Virus genome (UHGV): UHGV-0197997
Length of the DNA: 52,500 nt
Reading direction: 5' to 3' (one strand)
DNA from: a virus
The notes beneath the pieces are model-generated. The model saw only the letters and a program-made list of their open reading frames with translations. It searched no databases and was not told where the DNA came from. Below are positions 26,523-51,605 of this stretch, one piece after another (within the stretch, counting starts at the first letter, position 1; each line of letters opens with the position of its first letter). A program made the position numbers and the translations under genes.

Positions 26523-26915
26523 ATGAACAATCTGGAAAAATTACGCGCTGTTGGGGAAGCGGTATATGGGGATAAGTGGCAGTCTGCACTTTCACGCGCC
26601 CTCGGTATTTCTGACCGTACCGTGAGGAATTTCGTGTCTGGGAAGTCCCAACCGGAAAACTTATCAAATCGCTTACTCGAGGCGATGGAGCTTGAAATGG
26701 GGAAAATCAAAGCGGCCATCGACATCATCAATAGCGACAAGTTGCGTGGTGACGACATCTCTATTGAGATGATTACTCAAATTGCAGACCGCTACGAATA
26801 CTGTGATGAACAAGATCGTAAGGCTGCGATAGACGCAATGAACAATGCAGTTTACGAGGAAACATTCCTCTCCGACCTGGAAGCAATAGCGATCAGACTC
26901 GCAATACGCCATTAA
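26523..26915 (+). CDS. HTH DNA-binding protein
   Basis: HTH-like segment QSALSRALGISDRTVRNFVSG; follows small acidic ORF; hairpin 26920-26943 after stop. Confidence 0.55.
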   Translation: MNNLEKLRAVGEAVYGDKWQSALSRALGISDRTVRNFVSGKSQPENLSNRLLEAMELEMGKIKAAIDIINSDKLRGDDISIEMITQIADRYEYCDEQDRKAAIDAMNNAVYEETFLSDLEAIAIRLAIRH

Positions 26916-26930
26916 TGTTAAGCCCACGCG

Positions 26931-27161
26931 TTAACGTGGGCTTAAATTGGGGTGTGGTGCTGAGTGCCTCTCAGTAAGCCTTTGGTCAGCAACCATGACT
27001 TGCGGTCCGAGTGAATCATAAGGATTCCATTTAAGCTGTTTCCGCCCCTCCGCACAGGGGGATTCACCACGCCAATAATTTATAGCTACTTCATTCCCAT
27101 CGTCAATAGCAAGCACTCTGTCAAAGGCACCCGAAGATGCCTTTTGCACAGTGTTATTCAC
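26931..27161 (-). CDS. Hypothetical protein, 76 aa
   Basis: ORF downstream of small membrane ORF; stop lies in hairpin loop; weak support. Confidence 0.3.
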   Translation of the reverse strand: MNNTVQKASSGAFDRVLAIDDGNEVAINYWRGESPCAEGRKQLKWNPYDSLGPQVMVADQRLTERHSAPHPNLSPR

Positions 27162-27861: not shown

Positions 27862-27883
27862 GAAAAAGGCCCGCGAATGCGAG
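27862..27883 (-). terminator. Rho-independent terminator downstream of phage tRNA
   Basis: Minus-strand GCTCGC-ATTC-GCGGGC followed by CTTTTT. Confidence 0.55.
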
Positions 27884-28038
27884 CCTGGTGGATCCGCTTA
27901 CTGATACGGAGCGGCCAGCCTCAGCTGCCGCAGATTCAAATTGTGGCCCTGCTTTGGAGTCACTTTGCGAGCAGCTGGGACATGTATGTTTCGCATCGTG
28001 ATTGGGATTCGCTTCAGGCGCTGGCCCCACTACCATTC

Positions 28039-28114
28039 TGGTGCTGGTTGACGGAATCGAACCACCGACATCCTACTTACAAGGCAGGTGCTCTACCTAC
28101 TGAGCTAAACCAGC
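28039..28114 (-). tRNA. tRNA-Thr (anticodon UGU), phage-encoded
   Basis: Hand-folded cloverleaf: acceptor GCTGGTT/AACCAGC, D-arm GCTC-AGTAGGTA-GAGC, anticodon loop CTTGTAA, T-loop TTCGATT, encoded CCA; T-stem needs two wobble pairs; 5' end overlaps methyltransferase stop by 10 nt. Confidence 0.55.
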
Positions 28115-29154
28115 AAATTGCGCATTTCACTGACCGTCTGTTCAAACCGCTCGGTTTCCAGTTCAACGCCGATTCCACTCCGCCCGAGTAGAGCAGCTTG
28201 CTTTAGTGTGGAACCAGAACCAGCAAAGAAATCAGCTACGACCTCCCCCGGCCGACTGCTTGCAGTAATGATCTGCTGGAGCATATCGGCAGGTTTTTCG
28301 CATGGGTGCTTACCTGGGTAGAACTGAACAGGCTTATGAGTCCACACGTCGGTATACGGCACCGAGACGGAAACACTAAACGGCCTCCGCAGGCAGTGAT
28401 ACTCCTGCTGAAGTTCGCAGTATTTCCGGTTAAGAGATTGCCATGTTGCGACAAGCTGGTGATGGGGCTTAGCAAGTTCGTTTCGTGAGTGTTTATCTCT
28501 GGCAATTTGCTGGAACAACGTCTGCAATTTCAGGTAATCGGCTTCGTTCGGTAACTGCCACTGGCTAAGACCGAACCAGTGAGAAACCATGTTTTTCTTA
28601 CCTGTGGCAACTGTAATTTCTGCTGACGTTACTCCAAGAGATTCTCTGGCTTCCCGGAAATAGGAAATCAGTGGAGTCATGACATGCTGCTTGAGTTCAT
28701 TGCTCTTAGCAGCAAACCCATCATCTTTCGGATTATATGGCCCTTGATAATGATCGGCGAAAATGATGCGCTCCGTCGCAGGGAAATATGAGCGCAGGCT
28801 CTCTTTGCTGCATCCGTTCCAGCGCCCGGAAGGTTTTGCCCAGATAATATGGTTAAGCAGGTTAAAACGCTCGCGGACCAGTATCTCAATGTCCGCCGCC
28901 AGCCGGTGCCCGCAGAAAAGATACATGCTGCCCGAAGGTTTCAAAACCCGCCAGAAGTGGGCCAGACAACTATCGAGCCATCGCAAATAGTCATCATCCC
29001 CATTCCATTGATTGTCCCAACCGTTCGGCTTCACCTTAAAGTAAGGCGGGTCAGTAACGATCAAGTCGATGGAGTTATCTGGAAGCGATGGAAGAAATTG
29101 CAGGCAGTCAGCATTGATTAACTCAATACTGGATATTTTTACAGTATTTTTCAT
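28105..29154 (-). CDS. DNA methyltransferase, beta-class (N6-adenine or N4-cytosine), orphan
   Basis: DPPY motif (LIVTDPPYF) N-terminal to SAM motif DFFAGSGST; no adjacent restriction gene. Confidence 0.8.
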   Translation of the reverse strand: MKNTVKISSIELINADCLQFLPSLPDNSIDLIVTDPPYFKVKPNGWDNQWNGDDDYLRWLDSCLAHFWRVLKPSGSMYLFCGHRLAADIEILVRERFNLLNHIIWAKPSGRWNGCSKESLRSYFPATERIIFADHYQGPYNPKDDGFAAKSNELKQHVMTPLISYFREARESLGVTSAEITVATGKKNMVSHWFGLSQWQLPNEADYLKLQTLFQQIARDKHSRNELAKPHHQLVATWQSLNRKYCELQQEYHCLRRPFSVSVSVPYTDVWTHKPVQFYPGKHPCEKPADMLQQIITASSRPGEVVADFFAGSGSTLKQAALLGRSGIGVELETERFEQTVSEMRNLLV

Positions 29155-30101: not shown

Positions 30102-30127
30102 TAAAAAAACCCGCACATTGGCGGGTT
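30102..30127 (-). terminator. tR'-like terminator downstream of Q
   Basis: Minus-strand hairpin ACCCGC-loop-GCGGGT followed by TTTTTTT. Confidence 0.65.
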
Positions 30128-30139
30128 AATCAACGTTGA

Positions 30140-30225
30140 ACATACAAAGCCCATCGTTATAAAAACAATACCCAATAATTTTGAATATTGCAAGTATCTT
30201 GCTGCTATTTTTCATTAAAATGTAG
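30140..30225 (-). promoter_or_regulatory. Putative late promoter (pR'-like) and Q utilisation region
   Basis: AT-rich segment between Q stop and tR'-like terminator with TTGCAA ... TATTGT candidate hexamers; exact -35/-10 not resolved. Confidence 0.3.
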
Positions 30226-30984
30226 CTATCGTGTCACTTCCTTCAGTTTCTGCTCAGCGAAGGTCTCCTCTTGCCAGCATTTTGTAACCAGAATATTGAT
30301 CACCTCGGCATATCCGCTATACCACTGATAATTGGTCATATCAGGTACCAGCCGTATTACTCGATCTTTTACCAGTGTCGTAGGCAAACGGCTGTAACCC
30401 TTGCCATTACACCGTCCACATAGTTTTTGCACAGGTACTTTATGCAACTCAGTACGTTTTTTATCGAGTACGAGGCCGCGTCCACGGCAGTCCCTGCACG
30501 CTGTACTGATCCAGCCCTTCCCTGCGCAATGACTGCATGTTGACTCAACCTCTTCAGGTTTAATCGTAGGTGGGATGCCTTTCACTCCAGGGTGTTTAAC
30601 AACGTCCTTTACCTCCCGAATGACTCGCTGCCCATTGCATTGTGGGCATGTGCTCTTGCTGGCAGCTGAACGCGCATAATCATTGAAAGCAAAAGTTGCT
30701 AAGCAAGAAGCCATTTCAATACGAATACTTTCGGAAAGTTTGGACATTACAGGGTTCTTTAATGTCATCGCGTAATTGGTTAGTTGCTCGATAGCCGGCT
30801 CGGGATCCTGAATACCCATTTTTGCGAGAAACAAATTGAAGCCAAATCGAGCCTGGGCAGACGCCATACCTTGTGCTGCCATAACATCCGTAATCGTTAG
30901 TGAAGTGCCCCCAGTAGCCGGAGTTTCATCATTAAGCTTTGGTGACTTTGGGGAATAAAATTTCGGTAATGATTCAAGTTTCAT
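30226..30984 (-). CDS. Q: Late antiterminator Q (Cys-rich zinc-binding type)
   Basis: Start MKLESLPKFYSPKSP with SD GGAG; Cys-rich CPQC...CSHC...CRDC...CGRC; upstream of late promoter/terminator. Confidence 0.65.
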   Translation of the reverse strand: MKLESLPKFYSPKSPKLNDETPATGGTSLTITDVMAAQGMASAQARFGFNLFLAKMGIQDPEPAIEQLTNYAMTLKNPVMSKLSESIRIEMASCLATFAFNDYARSAASKSTCPQCNGQRVIREVKDVVKHPGVKGIPPTIKPEEVESTCSHCAGKGWISTACRDCRGRGLVLDKKRTELHKVPVQKLCGRCNGKGYSRLPTTLVKDRVIRLVPDMTNYQWYSGYAEVINILVTKCWQEETFAEQKLKEVTR

Positions 30985-31002
30985 GTTAAGCACTCCATAC
31001 AC

Positions 31003-33925: not shown

Positions 33926-34395
33926 TCCTCCAGTACCATTTTAAGTTCGAAAGGCAAGTCGCCACCGCAATAGCAGAGTTGCCCCAGCTCTGACATGAGG
34001 CTCCATAGGGTCATTGACGAATAGCCATTTTCGTCAGTCGCCGGCGGCTCAAATTCACCAAATATTCCTGGCGCACGAGCTCGATTTTCATCGTGTTGGG
34101 CCTGCATAAACCTCAGGGAGATATCATTCAACTTCACCTTTACGATGCTGTTGAGGTTAACTGAAACCTCCCTGGTTAAAAGCGAAGTGGTGATGCTGAT
34201 ACCGCGGGAAACCCCGCGGGTAATCTTGATGGCCCCTTTTCTCTCCAGCGCCTTGAGGTGGGTTGCCGCCGCATTGGGGGACCGGCACCCCAACATGCCG
34301 GTCAGTTCGTAGGTGGTAGGCGGGAAACCATGCTTACGTTGGTACTCGATCAGGAGGTTCAGAACCTCCTGCTGCCTGAGAGTTAACTTCATCAT
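33922..34395 (-). CDS. LexA N-terminal-like DNA-binding protein without S24 peptidase domain
   Basis: MKLTLRQQEVLNLLIEYQRKHGFPPTTYELTGMLGCRSPNAAATHLKALERKGAI closely resembles LexA DNA-binding domain; C-terminal half lacks Ser/Lys peptidase motifs. Confidence 0.55.
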   Translation of the reverse strand: MMKLTLRQQEVLNLLIEYQRKHGFPPTTYELTGMLGCRSPNAAATHLKALERKGAIKITRGVSRGISITTSLLTREVSVNLNSIVKVKLNDISLRFMQAQHDENRARAPGIFGEFEPPATDENGYSSMTLWSLMSELGQLCYCGGDLPFELKMVLEE

Positions 34396-36479
34396 GCTGC
34401 CCGCTCCTGTTTGTTAACGCACATTTCTGGCAGATTGGCCCTAACCAGCGCCTCAGCGAACGGCGGCGGCACGGCGTTTCCGCAGCGCGCAACCTGCTTG
34501 TCCTTCGAATACTTCACGCCGCGGTAGTCCCGGTCGATGATGTACCACTCAGGGAAGCCCTGCGCGCGATAGAGCTCATGCGGTTGCAGCATGCGCATCC
34601 CGATATCAACAATTCGGAACGTAACGCCGTCAATATCCACCAGCCCGGTGCTGTCCTCCCCGCAGTATTCCCGCAGAAATGCCAGCACCTGCTGAGCGCG
34701 CTCTTCGTCGTAGTCCTCGACCGCCAGTGTCGTTTTAACCTCTCCAACATGCTGGCCCCCGGCGGTAATTGTCGGCATCGGCTCGTCAGCGCGCTGACCA
34801 TCACGACAGGTCCCACGCAGTTTGACCAGGTGGGATGAGACTATTGCGGCATCGGCTTTAGTGGTCATTGTCTGCAGCGGCTCGCTAACATCACGCGGGC
34901 GGCTCTGCCCTGCTCGCCCACCAACGCCAACAACCTGGGCTGTAACCAGTGCATGATGATCAATCGTCGTCACCGAGTGGGCGGGCTCACCCAGTCCTAC
35001 GCCGGCGCCCTGATAATTCCCGCCGTAGTGTTTAGCCAGGAACGCCCCGACAACAGCATGCTTTCCGCCACCAGCAACAACGGTACCCAGCGGTTTGTCC
35101 AGCCCTGGCACGCGAGGTGCCTGCCCTGGTCGTTCTCCGTATCCCATCTGAATCAACGTCGGCACAACCAGTTGCGATTTACCGCCGCCGCCGGCGGTGA
35201 TTGTTGCACTGGGCTCGTCGGCGCGATGACCGATGCTTGCGCCAAACTGGCGCGCAATGACCGGCGCAACGATACAGGCGCGGGACTCTTTCAGGATGGT
35301 GTGAGCAGGTTTATCCAGTGGCCGTGGCTTAGCCTGGTACTCGCTGCCACCATTTCCGGCCAGGAACGGCGCCAGCTCAGCTTCAACGACACCCAGTGCA
35401 TGACCATTCCCGCCCGGGCGTTTTGACGTGCCGGCGGTCACCGTAGGTACCGGGTCGGTAACTGGCTGCCCGGTGGCACCGGTGCGGAATTTTGTCAGGT
35501 GAGGTACCGCGATTGCGTACCCATGAGTTTTGGTAATGGTCTGTAGAGGATCGGCCAGGGCCTGCCCCCGAAAACAGTCGTATTTGCCACGGGTGGTTGT
35601 GTGGTTGCATTTCACAATGAATGGATCCGCGCTGTCGATAACGAAACGCTGAATGCCGCGGGCTATGCGTTTGAGCGTATTCTCTGCCAACGGCTTTTTG
35701 CGGTCGAATATCGACCGCGCGGAAATAGTCCAGTCGATGCATTCCGCCGCGGTGCGAAACGGCGCCAGCTTGCCTGCCTGCACCGCCGGCGATTTCGGAT
35801 CCCCGTGTGTAGCCTCCGGCCAGACAATAGGCTGGTCATCACGACGCATCACCATGAAGAATCTTTTACGGATGGTTGGGGTTCCAAGGTCGGATGCACG
35901 CAGTTCACGGCAATCCAGATCGTAACCAAGCCCCGAAATCAGCCGCTGAGCCTGCTCGCTTTCCAGCGAGAGCTCCAGAAATTCGCAGCACTCTACCAGC
36001 GCAGGATGATCAGCAGGAATGCCAGTTGTTAGCATGCCGACAAATGCCCGGAATGTTTCGCCAACGCGCGCAGGGTCTGGGCGCATTTCTGCCGCCAGCA
36101 GCGGGCCCCACGTTTTGAACTCCTCCACGTTCTCCAACATCATCACCCGTGGGCCAACATCCAGGGCCCAACGAATGACAATCCACGCCAGCCCACGGAT
36201 GGCTTTTTCTACAGGCTTCGCCCCTTTCGCCTTCGAGAAGTGGCGACAATCTGGCGAAAACCAGGCGAGACCTACAGGTTTGCCGCTGGTGGCAGCTGCA
36301 GGAGAAACATCAAACACGCTTTCGCAATAGTGCAATGTGTCAGGATGGTTAGTGCGGTGCATGGCCACGGCGTTCTCGTCGTGGTTAATAGCAATATCAA
36401 CGCTGCGCCCGATCGCCATTTCGATCCCGGTTGATGCCCCGCCGCCGCCAGCAAAATTATCAACAATCAGCTCACGCAT
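34392..36479 (-). CDS. DNA cytosine-5 methyltransferase-like, 695 aa, with repeated TAGG-containing internal motifs
   Basis: Motif I FAGGGGASTG, ENV motif, motif IV-like SPDCRHFS (DC instead of PC), C-terminal RCGNAVPPPFA; four internal repeats of the TxTAGG type. Confidence 0.75.
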   Translation of the reverse strand: MRELIVDNFAGGGGASTGIEMAIGRSVDIAINHDENAVAMHRTNHPDTLHYCESVFDVSPAAATSGKPVGLAWFSPDCRHFSKAKGAKPVEKAIRGLAWIVIRWALDVGPRVMMLENVEEFKTWGPLLAAEMRPDPARVGETFRAFVGMLTTGIPADHPALVECCEFLELSLESEQAQRLISGLGYDLDCRELRASDLGTPTIRKRFFMVMRRDDQPIVWPEATHGDPKSPAVQAGKLAPFRTAAECIDWTISARSIFDRKKPLAENTLKRIARGIQRFVIDSADPFIVKCNHTTTRGKYDCFRGQALADPLQTITKTHGYAIAVPHLTKFRTGATGQPVTDPVPTVTAGTSKRPGGNGHALGVVEAELAPFLAGNGGSEYQAKPRPLDKPAHTILKESRACIVAPVIARQFGASIGHRADEPSATITAGGGGKSQLVVPTLIQMGYGERPGQAPRVPGLDKPLGTVVAGGGKHAVVGAFLAKHYGGNYQGAGVGLGEPAHSVTTIDHHALVTAQVVGVGGRAGQSRPRDVSEPLQTMTTKADAAIVSSHLVKLRGTCRDGQRADEPMPTITAGGQHVGEVKTTLAVEDYDEERAQQVLAFLREYCGEDSTGLVDIDGVTFRIVDIGMRMLQPHELYRAQGFPEWYIIDRDYRGVKYSKDKQVARCGNAVPPPFAEALVRANLPEMCVNKQERAA

Positions 36480-48254: not shown

Positions 48255-48464
48255 ATGGCAAAACTTATGAAAGCGAGTCAATGGGGCAAACGCGAATTTG
48301 CTAAAGACTCTATTCCTGATAATCGAACGATTAAACGTTGGGTTGAAAATGGACTCCTTACGGGAAAGATCGTCGACGGATCCGTTTTCGTCTTCGAGTC
48401 TGAAAAATGGGGTGTCGACTCAATGGTTAACCACACAGTTCGACAGCTAATAAATGAAGGTTGA
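48255..48464 (+). CDS. xis: Excisionase-like small DNA-binding protein
   Basis: 69 aa basic protein immediately upstream of and overlapping integrase start; SD GGAGG. Confidence 0.5.
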   Translation: MAKLMKASQWGKREFAKDSIPDNRTIKRWVENGLLTGKIVDGSVFVFESEKWGVDSMVNHTVRQLINEG

Positions 48465-48466
48465 CC

Positions 48467-49645
48467 ATGGCAGCAAGACCAAGAAAAAGAGAATATCGTC
48501 ATCTTCCTGAATACCTGATCTTTGATAAGGATCGAGGTGTATACAAATTCACACTCATAACGGGAAAGAAAAAGAATCTTGGTAAAGACCGAGCTATGGC
48601 GATAGCTATAGCTCGCGAATATAACCTAAGAATGAGGCCCTTTAATGCACCATCGGTTGAATTATTAATCCGAGACTCCGGGGGGATCTCTGGGGAAGCT
48701 AAACCATTTGCTGAACATGTAGATCATATTATGGCCCGAGCGATTGAAAATGAGCGCCCATCTCAAAATACTCTTGATGACTGGAGTAACGACGCACTTC
48801 GGGTGAAAGAATTCTTCGTCGGTATGCCAGCCTGCGATATCGAGCTGGAGCACGTGAACGCCTATATAAACCATTATCATGCTGATGCTTCAGCAAACGT
48901 ACAAAACAGGAAGGTCAGCTTCCTTAAGAAACTATTCTCCTATGCTGTCGATGAATCATTGATGTTTGATAACCCTGCTACACGTAAAAAAATGCGAAGG
49001 ACTGAGGAGAAGAAACGGCAGCGCCTGTCACTCGATAACTTTAAAGCCATCAGACTCGCCGCCGAACCATGGCTGCGTACCGCTATGGATTTAGCATTGC
49101 AGACGACGCATGCACGCCTCGAGGTGTCACGAATCCGATATTCAATCAGTGAGCCAAAAGATGGAGTCTGCGGGTGCGTATGGCTGGCACAGCCGGAGAA
49201 TGGGATATATGGCACGCTATACATCCACCGCCAGAAAGTACAGAAGAAAGAGGCCTCGCATGTTGCAATCCCGATCGGGGAAGAATTGAAACGGATTATT
49301 GACGAAAGCCGCGATAACGTAGCTAGCCCGTTTGTCGTTCATCGAATTCCTGAGCGGCAGGTTAAACGCAGCAAAGAGGTTTCACACCCGACACAGGTTG
49401 CGCCGGATTATCTGAGCCGGTCCTTTTCCGCGGTGCGAGACAAGCTAGGTTTATGCGACAAACTGGCAATGGATGAAAGACCAACCTTTCACGAAATTCG
49501 AGCGTTGGCCGCTCACCTCTTCGATCAGCAGGGTATAGATCCACAAGGTCGAATGGCGCATAGCGATGCAAAGTCCACCAAGATTTATACTCAAAATCAT
49601 ATAGACTGGGTCGTCGTCCCTCATGGTGAAATCAAAGCCTGTTAG
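48467..49645 (+). CDS. int: Tyrosine integrase (lambda Int family)
   Basis: C-terminal catalytic region with HEIRALAAH ... KSTKIY(Tyr); N-terminal arm-binding-like domain; start at ATG after SD GAAGG. Confidence 0.85.
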   Translation: MAARPRKREYRHLPEYLIFDKDRGVYKFTLITGKKKNLGKDRAMAIAIAREYNLRMRPFNAPSVELLIRDSGGISGEAKPFAEHVDHIMARAIENERPSQNTLDDWSNDALRVKEFFVGMPACDIELEHVNAYINHYHADASANVQNRKVSFLKKLFSYAVDESLMFDNPATRKKMRRTEEKKRQRLSLDNFKAIRLAAEPWLRTAMDLALQTTHARLEVSRIRYSISEPKDGVCGCVWLAQPENGIYGTLYIHRQKVQKKEASHVAIPIGEELKRIIDESRDNVASPFVVHRIPERQVKRSKEVSHPTQVAPDYLSRSFSAVRDKLGLCDKLAMDERPTFHEIRALAAHLFDQQGIDPQGRMAHSDAKSTKIYTQNHIDWVVVPHGEIKAC

Positions 49646-51083: not shown

Positions 51084-51556
51084 TTTTCTATCGTTAACCA
51101 AGGCTAATTTACCATCAATTTAACAGCATATACTGTAAAACCGCAATAGAATAACCCGTTGTCTATACAACATACTTGTTGTCAATGGGGACTATACTGC
51201 TCCAATCCACAGAGTACTATCCGAAGACACAAGTGTTCAAAAACCTTTCTATTCAACTCATATGCTTTTAGTCAGTTCGAATGAGTTGTAGCTTGGAATG
51301 CTTCACTCGATCATGTTAGGCCGCTAGGAAATCGAGCAGAACAAACAATCAACAAAAATGTTTGTCCGATATAATCCACTGTGCTGAAAAGGTTATGACC
51401 AGACTTAATAAATTAATCCAAATGGCATGGGGAGAAACTACCCCCTAACTCATTGATGTATATAGAGCATATTTTGCTAAAAAAGCACTGTTTGTTTATA
51501 CATACAAACATCCCTCACCACCAGCAATGGCGCGGCTTACAGCGGTTTATAAGCGG

Positions 51557-51605
51557 CGACATGGGGTGTCGGGGGTCGGAGGTTCAAATCCTCTCGTGCC
51601 GACCA
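51557..51605 (+). other. attR-like core: 3' portion of tRNA-Pro(GGG) (anticodon loop to CCA), no 5' half
   Basis: CGACATGGGGTGTCGGGGGTCGGAGGTTCAAATCCTCTCGTGCCGACCA matches the recalled 3' part of enterobacterial proL; upstream sequence cannot form acceptor/D-arm. Confidence 0.6.

Follow-up and report, generated by a model that had tools for sequence, protein, structure and literature searches.

A covarying pseudoknotted RNA element beside a tRNA-Thr(UGU) gene in the late leader of a lambdoid prophage

Introduction

The virus genome UHGV-0197997 (52,500 nucleotides (nt); "the window" denotes this whole stretch) carries on its minus strand a tRNA-Thr gene whose 5′ end overlaps the stop codon of a DNA methyltransferase gene and whose 3′ end is followed by about 150 nt of unassigned sequence (27887–28038). 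The locus raises two questions, namely, what occupies the interval behind the tRNA, and how the overlap arose. A sequence-only reading had guessed that the interval may hold a small RNA; comparative evidence, in the form of four covarying helices and a pseudoknot, supports this guess. The structured element described here appears to be a new covariation-supported pseudoknotted RNA family absent from Rfam 15.

Results

Fold of the element and its conservation

The tRNA gene, the element with its parts, and the terminator that follows it are located as given below.

28039–28114, minus strand: tRNA-Thr gene, anticodon UGU, 76 nt, CCA encoded (ARAGORN, Rfam RF00005)
27891–28038, minus strand: structured RNA element, helices H1–H4 and a pseudoknot, beginning right after the tRNA CCA (covariance model R1, covariation)
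Within 28003–28029, minus strand: H1 stem, 28029–28025 with 28007–28003, UGGGG/UCCCA (alignment A2 columns 16–20/38–42)
Within 28003–28029, minus strand: H1 inner helix of 3 base pairs (bp), 28023–28021 with 28017–28015 (alignment A2 columns 22–24/28–30)
27960–28001, minus strand: H2, two-part helix, 28001–27998/27963–27960 and 27995–27992/27969–27966 (98.5% of cells paired)
27944–27982, minus strand: pseudoknot, H2 loop strand 27982–27973 (UGUCCCAGCU) with 27953–27944 (AGCAGGGCCA) (RNAalifold, covariation)
27911–27931, minus strand: H3, 27931–27928/27914–27911 and 27926–27924/27919–27917, capped by a tetraloop (99.6% of cells paired)
27893–27910, minus strand: H4 hairpin, 27910–27906 with 27897–27893, UCCGU/GCGGA, with the nearly invariant loop AYCAGUAA (99.4% of cells paired)
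27862–27886, minus strand: terminator-like hairpin (AGGCUCGC-AUUC-GCGGGCCU; 27886–27867) and U-tract (terminator scan; kept in the alignments of relatives)

Alignment A2 comprises 34 distinct sequences and was produced by MAFFT without reference to structure; the tested fold was read from the variation. Over its 36 pairs, 96.4% of 1220 cells are standard pairs. Both sides are changed in 17 of the 36 pairs, compared with 6.7 ± 1.6 in column shuffles, and none of 500 shuffles reaches 17. The covariation score is 0.188; with the 3′ partners slid by ±1–3 columns it is at most 0.049, and pairing falls to 22–45%. There are 73 G-U cells vs. seven A-C cells, and 96.4% of cells are paired on the sense strand vs. 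91.0% on the antisense one; the excess of G-U over A-C indicates an RNA on the tRNA (minus) strand. On this strand, compensatory changes have preserved the fold.

The exchanges in H1 are CG/UA, GC/AU, and AU/UA, with 86–88% of cells paired. H2 contains a 2×2 internal loop (GA/AA) and a 22-nt loop, and both sides change in four of its eight pairs: the outer stem occurs as UCAC/GUGA, UCGC/GCGA, GCAC/GUGC, GCCC/GGGC, GCGC/GCGC, and GAGU/GCUC, the inner one as UGCG/CGCA or UGUG/CACA. In the pseudoknot, 98.9% of cells are paired; pair 71/93 is CG (29 sequences), AU (4), or UA (1), and pair 72/92 occurs as UA, UG, and CG. H2 and the pairing of its loop with the downstream strand are predicted to form an H-type pseudoknot. 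Both sides are changed in four of the seven H3 pairs, with pair 117/132 seen as CG (17), AU (15), and GC (2); the closing pair of H4 is UA (26) or CG (8). RNAalifold, run independently, proposed H3, H4, and the pseudoknot strands.

The most conserved nucleotides are unpaired or lie in the pseudoknot: UACAUGUCCCAG, CAGGGCCACAAU, and the H4 loop. The A/U-rich linker between the pseudoknot and H3, with the conserved single-stranded stretch CACAAUUUGAAUCUG, varies more than the pseudoknot. In the window, the terminator follows the element after 6 nt; its hairpin and U-tract were found by the scan where a terminator had been placed, some 150 nt behind the tRNA.

Folding of single sequences was uninformative (z about 0) and offered window-specific helices that relatives do not keep. 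One of these, a 10-bp helix at 27924–27979 of the minus strand (CAGCUGC.CGC with GCGGCAGCUG), can compete with the pseudoknot and H3; it dominates the single-sequence minimum free energy (MFE) structure and is not conserved in relatives.

Coding potential, promoters, and known families

As had been stated, the interval contains no second tRNA, as judged by ARAGORN and the Rfam tRNA model, both of which also reject a degenerate one in these 150 nt. Its only open reading frames (ORFs) are short (32–67 aa) and are not conserved as ORFs in relatives. One of them deserved attention.

27898–27996, minus strand: 32-codon ORF, MRNIHVPAARKVTPKQGHNLNLRQLRLAAPYQ, open in the window and most E-type copies (those with a module inserted before the terminator, see below)

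Differences between copies in this frame at first looked synonymous, and it has the best ratio of synonymous-type to non-synonymous-type changes among the six frames (21:37). The apparent synonymous changes are the two strands of the H3 and H2 stems. TAA interrupts the frame at codon 14 in the tRNA-less type that is most frequent, and L025 has TAA at codon 24; the three codon phases vary almost equally (22/21/20 among 24 distinct sequences), that is, with no three-base periodicity; no Shine–Dalgarno sequence precedes its ATG; and tblastn with the 32-aa peptide matched Klebsiella phage Kp4866-6 alone. Together with the six-frame test, the stops and the covariation of the stems led to the rejection of this frame as a gene.

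A scan for sigma-70-like promoters finds none inside the element on either strand. Rfam 15 yields no match at E ≤ 10 over 27887–28038, nor in relatives L016, L075, and L074; at gathering thresholds, its matches in the whole window are tRNA and STnc100 only. The covariance model R1 finds nothing in the lambda Q–S region or in a Serratia T4-like tRNA cluster, and with filters off its best match in T4 68000–76000 has E of 1.2 and does not lie at rnaC/rnaD. The sequence of the element was not found in the searchable literature. A possible element remnant after the first late terminator (about 30100) shares only UAUGG after the U-tract (R1 5.3 bits, E about 1) and is not claimable.

Distribution and neighbors

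Pattern scans identify the element at 63 other loci (64 with the window), coming from IMG/VR viral contigs, one metagenome scan, one scan of species-representative genomes, and BLAST. The species-representative scan contributed one Raoultella contig; BLAST contributed the unannotated Kp4866-6, in addition to prophages of three of 5426 complete E. coli genomes. Searches of deposited plasmids gave one truncated copy, and those of deposited phages gave no relative besides Kp4866-6. In the window, R1 matches a single copy (27891–28041, minus strand, 176 bits), and it recovers divergent members at 89–162 bits, in which the fold is kept with different stem sequences.

The surroundings of the element vary on both sides. 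Of the 64 loci, 30 have a non-tRNA "module U" (motif GCCGGAUAAACGUAACCGGCA) 5′ of the element, 23 have tRNA-Thr(UGU), four a terminator U-tract, and one tRNA-Arg(UCU); about half of the loci have the element without any adjacent tRNA. Downstream, a terminator follows closely (~40 nt or less) in 29 loci and at a distance of ~140 nt in 24, and about 11 show none over the first 170 nt; E-type copies carry an inserted module of ~100 nt that separates the element from the terminator. Neighboring protein genes also differ among loci. The Q gene that accompanies the element belongs to PF03589 in the window and to an unrelated family, PF06530, in L029; in L072 and L079, the element stands beside DUF2303/ParB-HTH and XRE-repressor genes, not lysis genes. 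These arrangements show the element to be a movable module of late leaders.

About 35 further loci (L022, L035–L071, e.g., Klebsiella phage ST974-OXA48phi18.2) have tRNA-Thr and only the first ~52 nt of the element, followed by the start of an unrelated gene. This remnant consists of H1 and the 5′ half of H2, and such remnants appear to mark a recurrent recombination breakpoint inside the element.

Module U lies ~100 nt 5′ of the element in tRNA-less relatives (L001, L016, L031, L072, L079, L092, and others), ends in the motif given above, and occurs in duplicate in some cases. Rfam has no match for it; a tRNA-like structure was considered and rejected, as it shows neither an Rfam tRNA signal nor a clear and convincing consensus fold. 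Parts of module U (AAAUCCCxUUAC, CGACCAACAAAC) are found again in the spacers that separate tRNA genes in large-phage arrays (L081).

H3 and H4 also occur alone (R1 22–26 bits), ~10 nt 5′ of tRNA-Thr(UGU), in L080 (573–613), L083 (3569–3609), L086 (596–636), and L081 (2532–2572). The tRNA-Thr(UGU) behind them opens arrays of 6–14 tRNAs, on contigs of 46–92 kb; in L080 and L083, H3 and H4 are preceded by a strong promoter and a leader of ~260 nt with no Rfam match in it. A wider scan with the H4 hairpin motif gave mostly chance matches within genes.

The tRNA-Thr(UGU) gene

The tRNA itself is an ordinary tRNA-Thr and was rightly called. The sequence-only reading had described a 76-nt cloverleaf with anticodon UGU and encoded CCA, and had left it to tRNA predictors to reject the fold. 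Both predictors accept it: ARAGORN calls tRNA-Thr with anticodon TGT at 28039–28114 of the minus strand, and RF00005 matches 28042–28114 (minus strand) over the full model (1–71) with 69.9 bits and E of 1e-14, the gathering score being 29. The two adjacent wobble pairs that had been noted in the T-stem are also seen in the Rfam alignment (GGUGG/CCGUC, G-U beside U-G). Relatives have T-stem GGCGG/CCGUC and anticodon stem CCUGC/GCAGG, with G-C at the two positions changed in the window copy. The latter carries two C-to-U changes, one in the T-stem and one in the anticodon stem (CCUGC/GUAGG), with pairing kept via G-U; hence, one of the two T-stem wobbles is specific to the window copy. With tRNA-Thr from T4-like phages of Erwinia and Serratia, the gene shares 84% identity.

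ACA is a rare codon in Klebsiella and E. coli. It accounts for 19.7% of Thr codons in the window ORFs and for 36% in the tape-measure gene, which fits a codon-supply role for a late-expressed tRNA-Thr(UGU). Most likely, the tRNA helps to decode ACA, a codon that the late genes of this phage use often.

The methyltransferase overlap

28105–29154, minus strand: N6/N4 DNA methyltransferase ORF, 349 aa (ORF list; Pfam PF01555, 7.9e-40)

The ORF list and the tRNA coordinates bear out the reported overlap of 10 nt: the last 10 nt of the methyltransferase ORF, stop included, are inside the 5′ end of tRNA-Thr, and its final three codons and stop derive from the junction with the tRNA. In tRNA-less relatives (L001, L014, L016), the methyltransferase ends with …MRNLLEH(R/L)PPQPNPLP* and is followed by a non-tRNA stretch of ~95 nt that ends with …CGTAACCGGCACTTAAATGG. 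In the window and in L004, L006, L009, L010, L020, L028, and L041, the protein ends with …MRNLLV*, and the GTT TAG of this version is the 5′ end of the tRNA (GCTGGTTTAGCTC). Both versions have TTGCTGG at the left junction, and at the right one both have AACC(A/G)GCAC. The same tRNA-Thr is found without the upstream methyltransferase in L003, L007, and L029, while in L005 its position is taken by tRNA-Arg(UCU).

Judging from these sequences, a tRNA cassette seems to have replaced ~95 nt at the short shared sequences, so that the methyltransferase would have lost 11 codons and gained a new stop. Because loci with and without the tRNA share the junction sequences, the tRNA also occurs without the methyltransferase, and tRNA-Arg takes its place in L005, the overlap is probably a scar of cassette replacement, and no regulatory or designed arrangement.

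In L025, ~90 nt 5′ of the element, and in L090/L098, a degenerate tRNA-Arg-like 3′ half (…GAGTCCTGAATGGTGCACCA) precedes the element and is not called by ARAGORN; it appears to be a decaying tRNA cassette. The prophage has two DNA methyltransferase genes: one of C-5 cytosine type (PF00145) at 34392–36479 of the minus strand, in the early region, and the N6/N4 one at 28105–29154 beside the tRNA.

The late leader

The window is a lambdoid (HK97-like) prophage; it carries an integrase gene (48461–49645), the large terminase subunit, and an HK97-type tape-measure protein. The following features define the late unit to which the tRNA and the element belong.

30226–31002, minus strand: Q antiterminator gene (Pfam PF03589 "Antitermination protein Q", 4.7e-42)
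30150–30193, minus strand: late promoter (pR′-like), TTGCAA-17-TATTGT at 30193–30165, then AACGATGGG (aligned with lambda pR′)
30103–30127, minus strand: first late terminator (tR′1), right after the late promoter, hairpin 30127–30108 (terminator scan; kept in L075/L108)
26915–27101, minus strand: STnc100 (RF02076), 72.3 bits, full length, above the gathering score (Rfam), between the element, which is ~800 nt upstream of it, and the lysis genes

On the minus strand, the order is Q, promoter, tR′1, two small ORFs, methyltransferase, tRNA, element, terminator, TerB-like gene, STnc100, holin (PF16931), and endolysin. A lambdoid late unit is recognized here by the Q gene, a pR′-type promoter with AACGATGGG, a terminator, and lysis genes downstream. 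The promoter is one match below the threshold of a simple scan and was read from the sequence; AACGATGGG is invariant in the alignment with lambda pR′, and we take this nonamer to cover the sigma-dependent pause signal of lambda.

In L075 and L108, the element comes directly after the same promoter and first terminator, with a second terminator and the holin gene behind it. This looks like the minimal arrangement; in the window, cargo genes and the tRNA were presumably inserted after the first terminator, ahead of the element.

The short leader at 30103–30193 (minus strand) is the counterpart of lambda 6S/StxS-type transcripts; the equivalent stretch of L075 has a sub-threshold STnc370 match (26.9 bits). 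On the plus strand, at 51528–51605, ARAGORN calls a 78-nt tRNA-Pro(GGG) to which the Rfam tRNA model gives 22.6 bits, short of its gathering score (29). This doubtful or degenerate gene stands about 1.9 kb past the integrase gene and may have to do with the attachment site.

Discussion

Proposed role of the element

We consider it probable that the locus comprises two adjacent minus-strand RNA genes in a Q-dependent late unit: the tRNA-Thr(UGU), brought in by recombination, and a pseudoknotted RNA of ~145 nt that belongs to an undescribed family and acts as a self-contained RNA. After induction, Q-modified RNA polymerase from the late promoter would read through the terminators and transcribe the tRNA and the element along with the methyltransferase. 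The release of the tRNA by RNase P and the 3′-end maturation enzymes would set the 5′ end of the element, while polymerase lacking the Q modification would stop at 27867–27886 and set its 3′ end. In lysogens, transcription of the element would depend on read-through of upstream terminators or on starts 5′ of the methyltransferase. The folded RNA may then bind a protein or a small ligand via the invariant pseudoknot and loops, with no control of one particular neighbor gene. Transcription of the element is inferred from established lambdoid biology, and the boundaries and stability of its transcript are putative. With modest confidence, we regard it as a self-contained protein- or ligand-binding RNA made from the late transcript; this is favored over a regulator of adjacent genes because the tertiary-type elements are invariant, neighbors and terminator positions vary, and the element occurs outside late leaders. 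It may not be a classical terminator-ended small RNA, as the terminator of relatives is adjacent, ~140 nt off, or absent within 170 nt.

Several observations weigh against this explanation. H1 is the weakest helix (86–88% paired), and the class of L073/L074/L076 has a different 5-bp hairpin instead. Single-sequence folding shows no stability above that of shuffled sequence (MFE z-scores −0.45 and +0.15), and the window MFE structure of −44 kcal/mol uses window-specific helices, the nested consensus fold reaching −25 kcal/mol without the pseudoknot. Close kinship (85% mean column identity) leaves a modest number of independent compensatory events. Finally, as the ~35 truncated loci show, the tRNA can do without the element, and phages can lose the latter.

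Other explanations

Among the alternatives, a cis-acting leader element deserves the most serious consideration, although we find it rather unlikely. Such an element, for which the HK022 put RNA is an analogue, would protect the 5′ end of the late mRNA after excision of the tRNA, direct RNase processing, or aid the Q-modified polymerase or block Rho. The element is nearly always in a late leader and oriented with late transcription, its start is only a few nt away from the 3′ end of a tRNA or from the U-tract of a terminator, and in L075, L108, and L074 the gap between the upstream terminator and H1 is too small for a promoter. However, a simple hairpin is enough for 5′ protection, yet here the pseudoknot and several loops are invariant; moreover, the element is also found away from late genes (L072, L079), its position relative to terminators varies, and the loss of two thirds of it is tolerated in ~35 loci. 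An Hfq-type base-pairing small RNA, ended by the terminator and pairing with host or phage mRNAs through CACAAUUUGAAUCUG or the H4 loop, would have a precedent in the short pR′–tR′ transcript of Stx phages, which yields the Hfq-bound StxS (PMC7547250). The window and 28 other loci do have an intrinsic terminator with a U-tract within ~40 nt, and unpaired A/U-rich sequence separates the pseudoknot from H3; but in 24 loci the terminator is ~140 nt off and in about 11 it is absent within 170 nt, the A/U-rich linker is more variable than the pseudoknot, and the dense tertiary-type architecture is unusual for seed-pairing small RNAs, which makes this reading improbable. A riboswitch or attenuator governing the terminator at 27867–27886, and hence read-through into the TerB-like and lysis genes, would account for a folded conserved domain with a terminator 6 nt behind it in the window. 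We hardly credit it, as the distance and presence of the terminator vary, with no fixed spacing of an expression platform and with the ~100-nt insert of E-type copies, no alternative antiterminator pairing is seen, Q-modified polymerase ignores terminators, and the downstream genes differ among loci.

Small ribozymes are common near phage tRNAs, and a new self-cleaving one that processes the late transcript beside the tRNA would agree with the compact pseudoknotted core, its invariant unpaired nucleotides, and the precise, conserved junction with the upstream tRNA (CCA-GA-AYGG). This is very unlikely, given that no Rfam ribozyme family matches at E ≤ 10, that no cleavage site was identified in this analysis, and that half of the copies have no neighboring tRNA. 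DNA without function, travelling with the tRNA cassette and looking conserved through close kinship, is already disfavored and has scarcely any probability left: neighboring genes are likewise 77–98% identical between these phages and truncated copies persist, but against this stand the compensatory double changes in 17 pairs, the failure of the register-shift controls, the lack of a tRNA at about half of the element loci, and the maintenance of the fold in divergent members despite different stem sequences. Least probable of all, to the point of being negligible, is a small protein encoded by the 32-codon ORF, as its openness in the window and its synonymous-looking changes are set against in-frame stops, aperiodic variation, and the stem sides on which these changes fall.

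Comparison with known systems

The element is a new family within a known general kind, the non-coding RNAs that phages encode next to tRNAs or in late leaders. Those nearest to it in kind are T4 species 1 and 2 (rnaC and rnaD), which are made late and whose function is still unexplained (PMC9697503). Like the element, they are RNAs of ~120–140 nt directly 3′ of a phage tRNA, which is tRNA-Arg in T4, as the tRNA-Arg(UCU) before the element in L005. They are not homologous to it: no similarity of sequence or structure is seen by the covariance model over the T4 region (best E > 1), and T4 is a virulent myovirus, whereas the element resides in the late leaders of temperate phages, often without a neighboring tRNA.

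StxS is an Hfq-bound small RNA matured from the short pR′–tR′ transcript of Stx phages and shows that lambdoid late-leader transcripts can become functional RNAs (PMC7547250). StxS and lambda 6S-type RNAs resemble the element in being non-coding late-leader RNAs, encoded downstream of Q and ahead of the lysis genes, with an intrinsic terminator as their boundary (PMC7547250). However, StxS spans the late promoter to the first terminator, and its equivalent in the window is a separate unit (about 30158–30103), the element being 2.1 kb further down, or directly after tR′1 in L075/L108; nor is there homology, as R1 finds nothing in the lambda Q–S region. STnc100 (RF02076) is a known enterobacterial small RNA family present in the same leader of the window, but with another sequence and at another position, and the element matches no Rfam model.

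The E. coli tRNA-linked trailer RNAs 3′ETS-leuZ and RtT are released from the 3′ flank of tRNA precursors by the normal tRNA-processing enzymes. Unlike the element, they are chromosomal and have no comparable pseudoknotted fold, and RtT, which is in Rfam, did not match it. The tRNA genes ileZ-argN-argO of Stx phages also lie between Q/pR′ and the lysis genes and are expressed with the late transcript, although these are other tRNAs; we know of no structured element reported with them.

Significance

A broader proposition, which we put forward tentatively and hold to be possible though not probable, is that the element founds a new class of pseudoknotted phage RNAs: autonomous genes with a function of their own, which move between the late leaders of temperate phages and phage tRNA clusters. 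If so, sequestering of a host protein or defense factor, sensing of a metabolite, or catalysis of its own processing would be conceivable, and the class may illuminate stable RNAs beside phage tRNAs, e.g., T4 species 1 and 2.

For annotation, the model distinguishes the element from unannotated intergenic DNA, and the cassette replacement offers an explanation for the odd tRNA/methyltransferase overlap. Three matters become testable: the role of a conserved phage RNA in lytic growth or lysogeny; why stable RNAs often adjoin phage tRNAs, an old question since T4 species 1 and 2; and the swapping of tRNA cassettes in phage genomes at short shared sequences. More generally, the untranslated leader of the late operon in temperate phages of Klebsiella and E. 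coli, usually treated as a spacer, can hold a compact pseudoknotted RNA, whose fold selection has kept while the RNA moved among phages with different antiterminators, tRNAs, and cargo genes.

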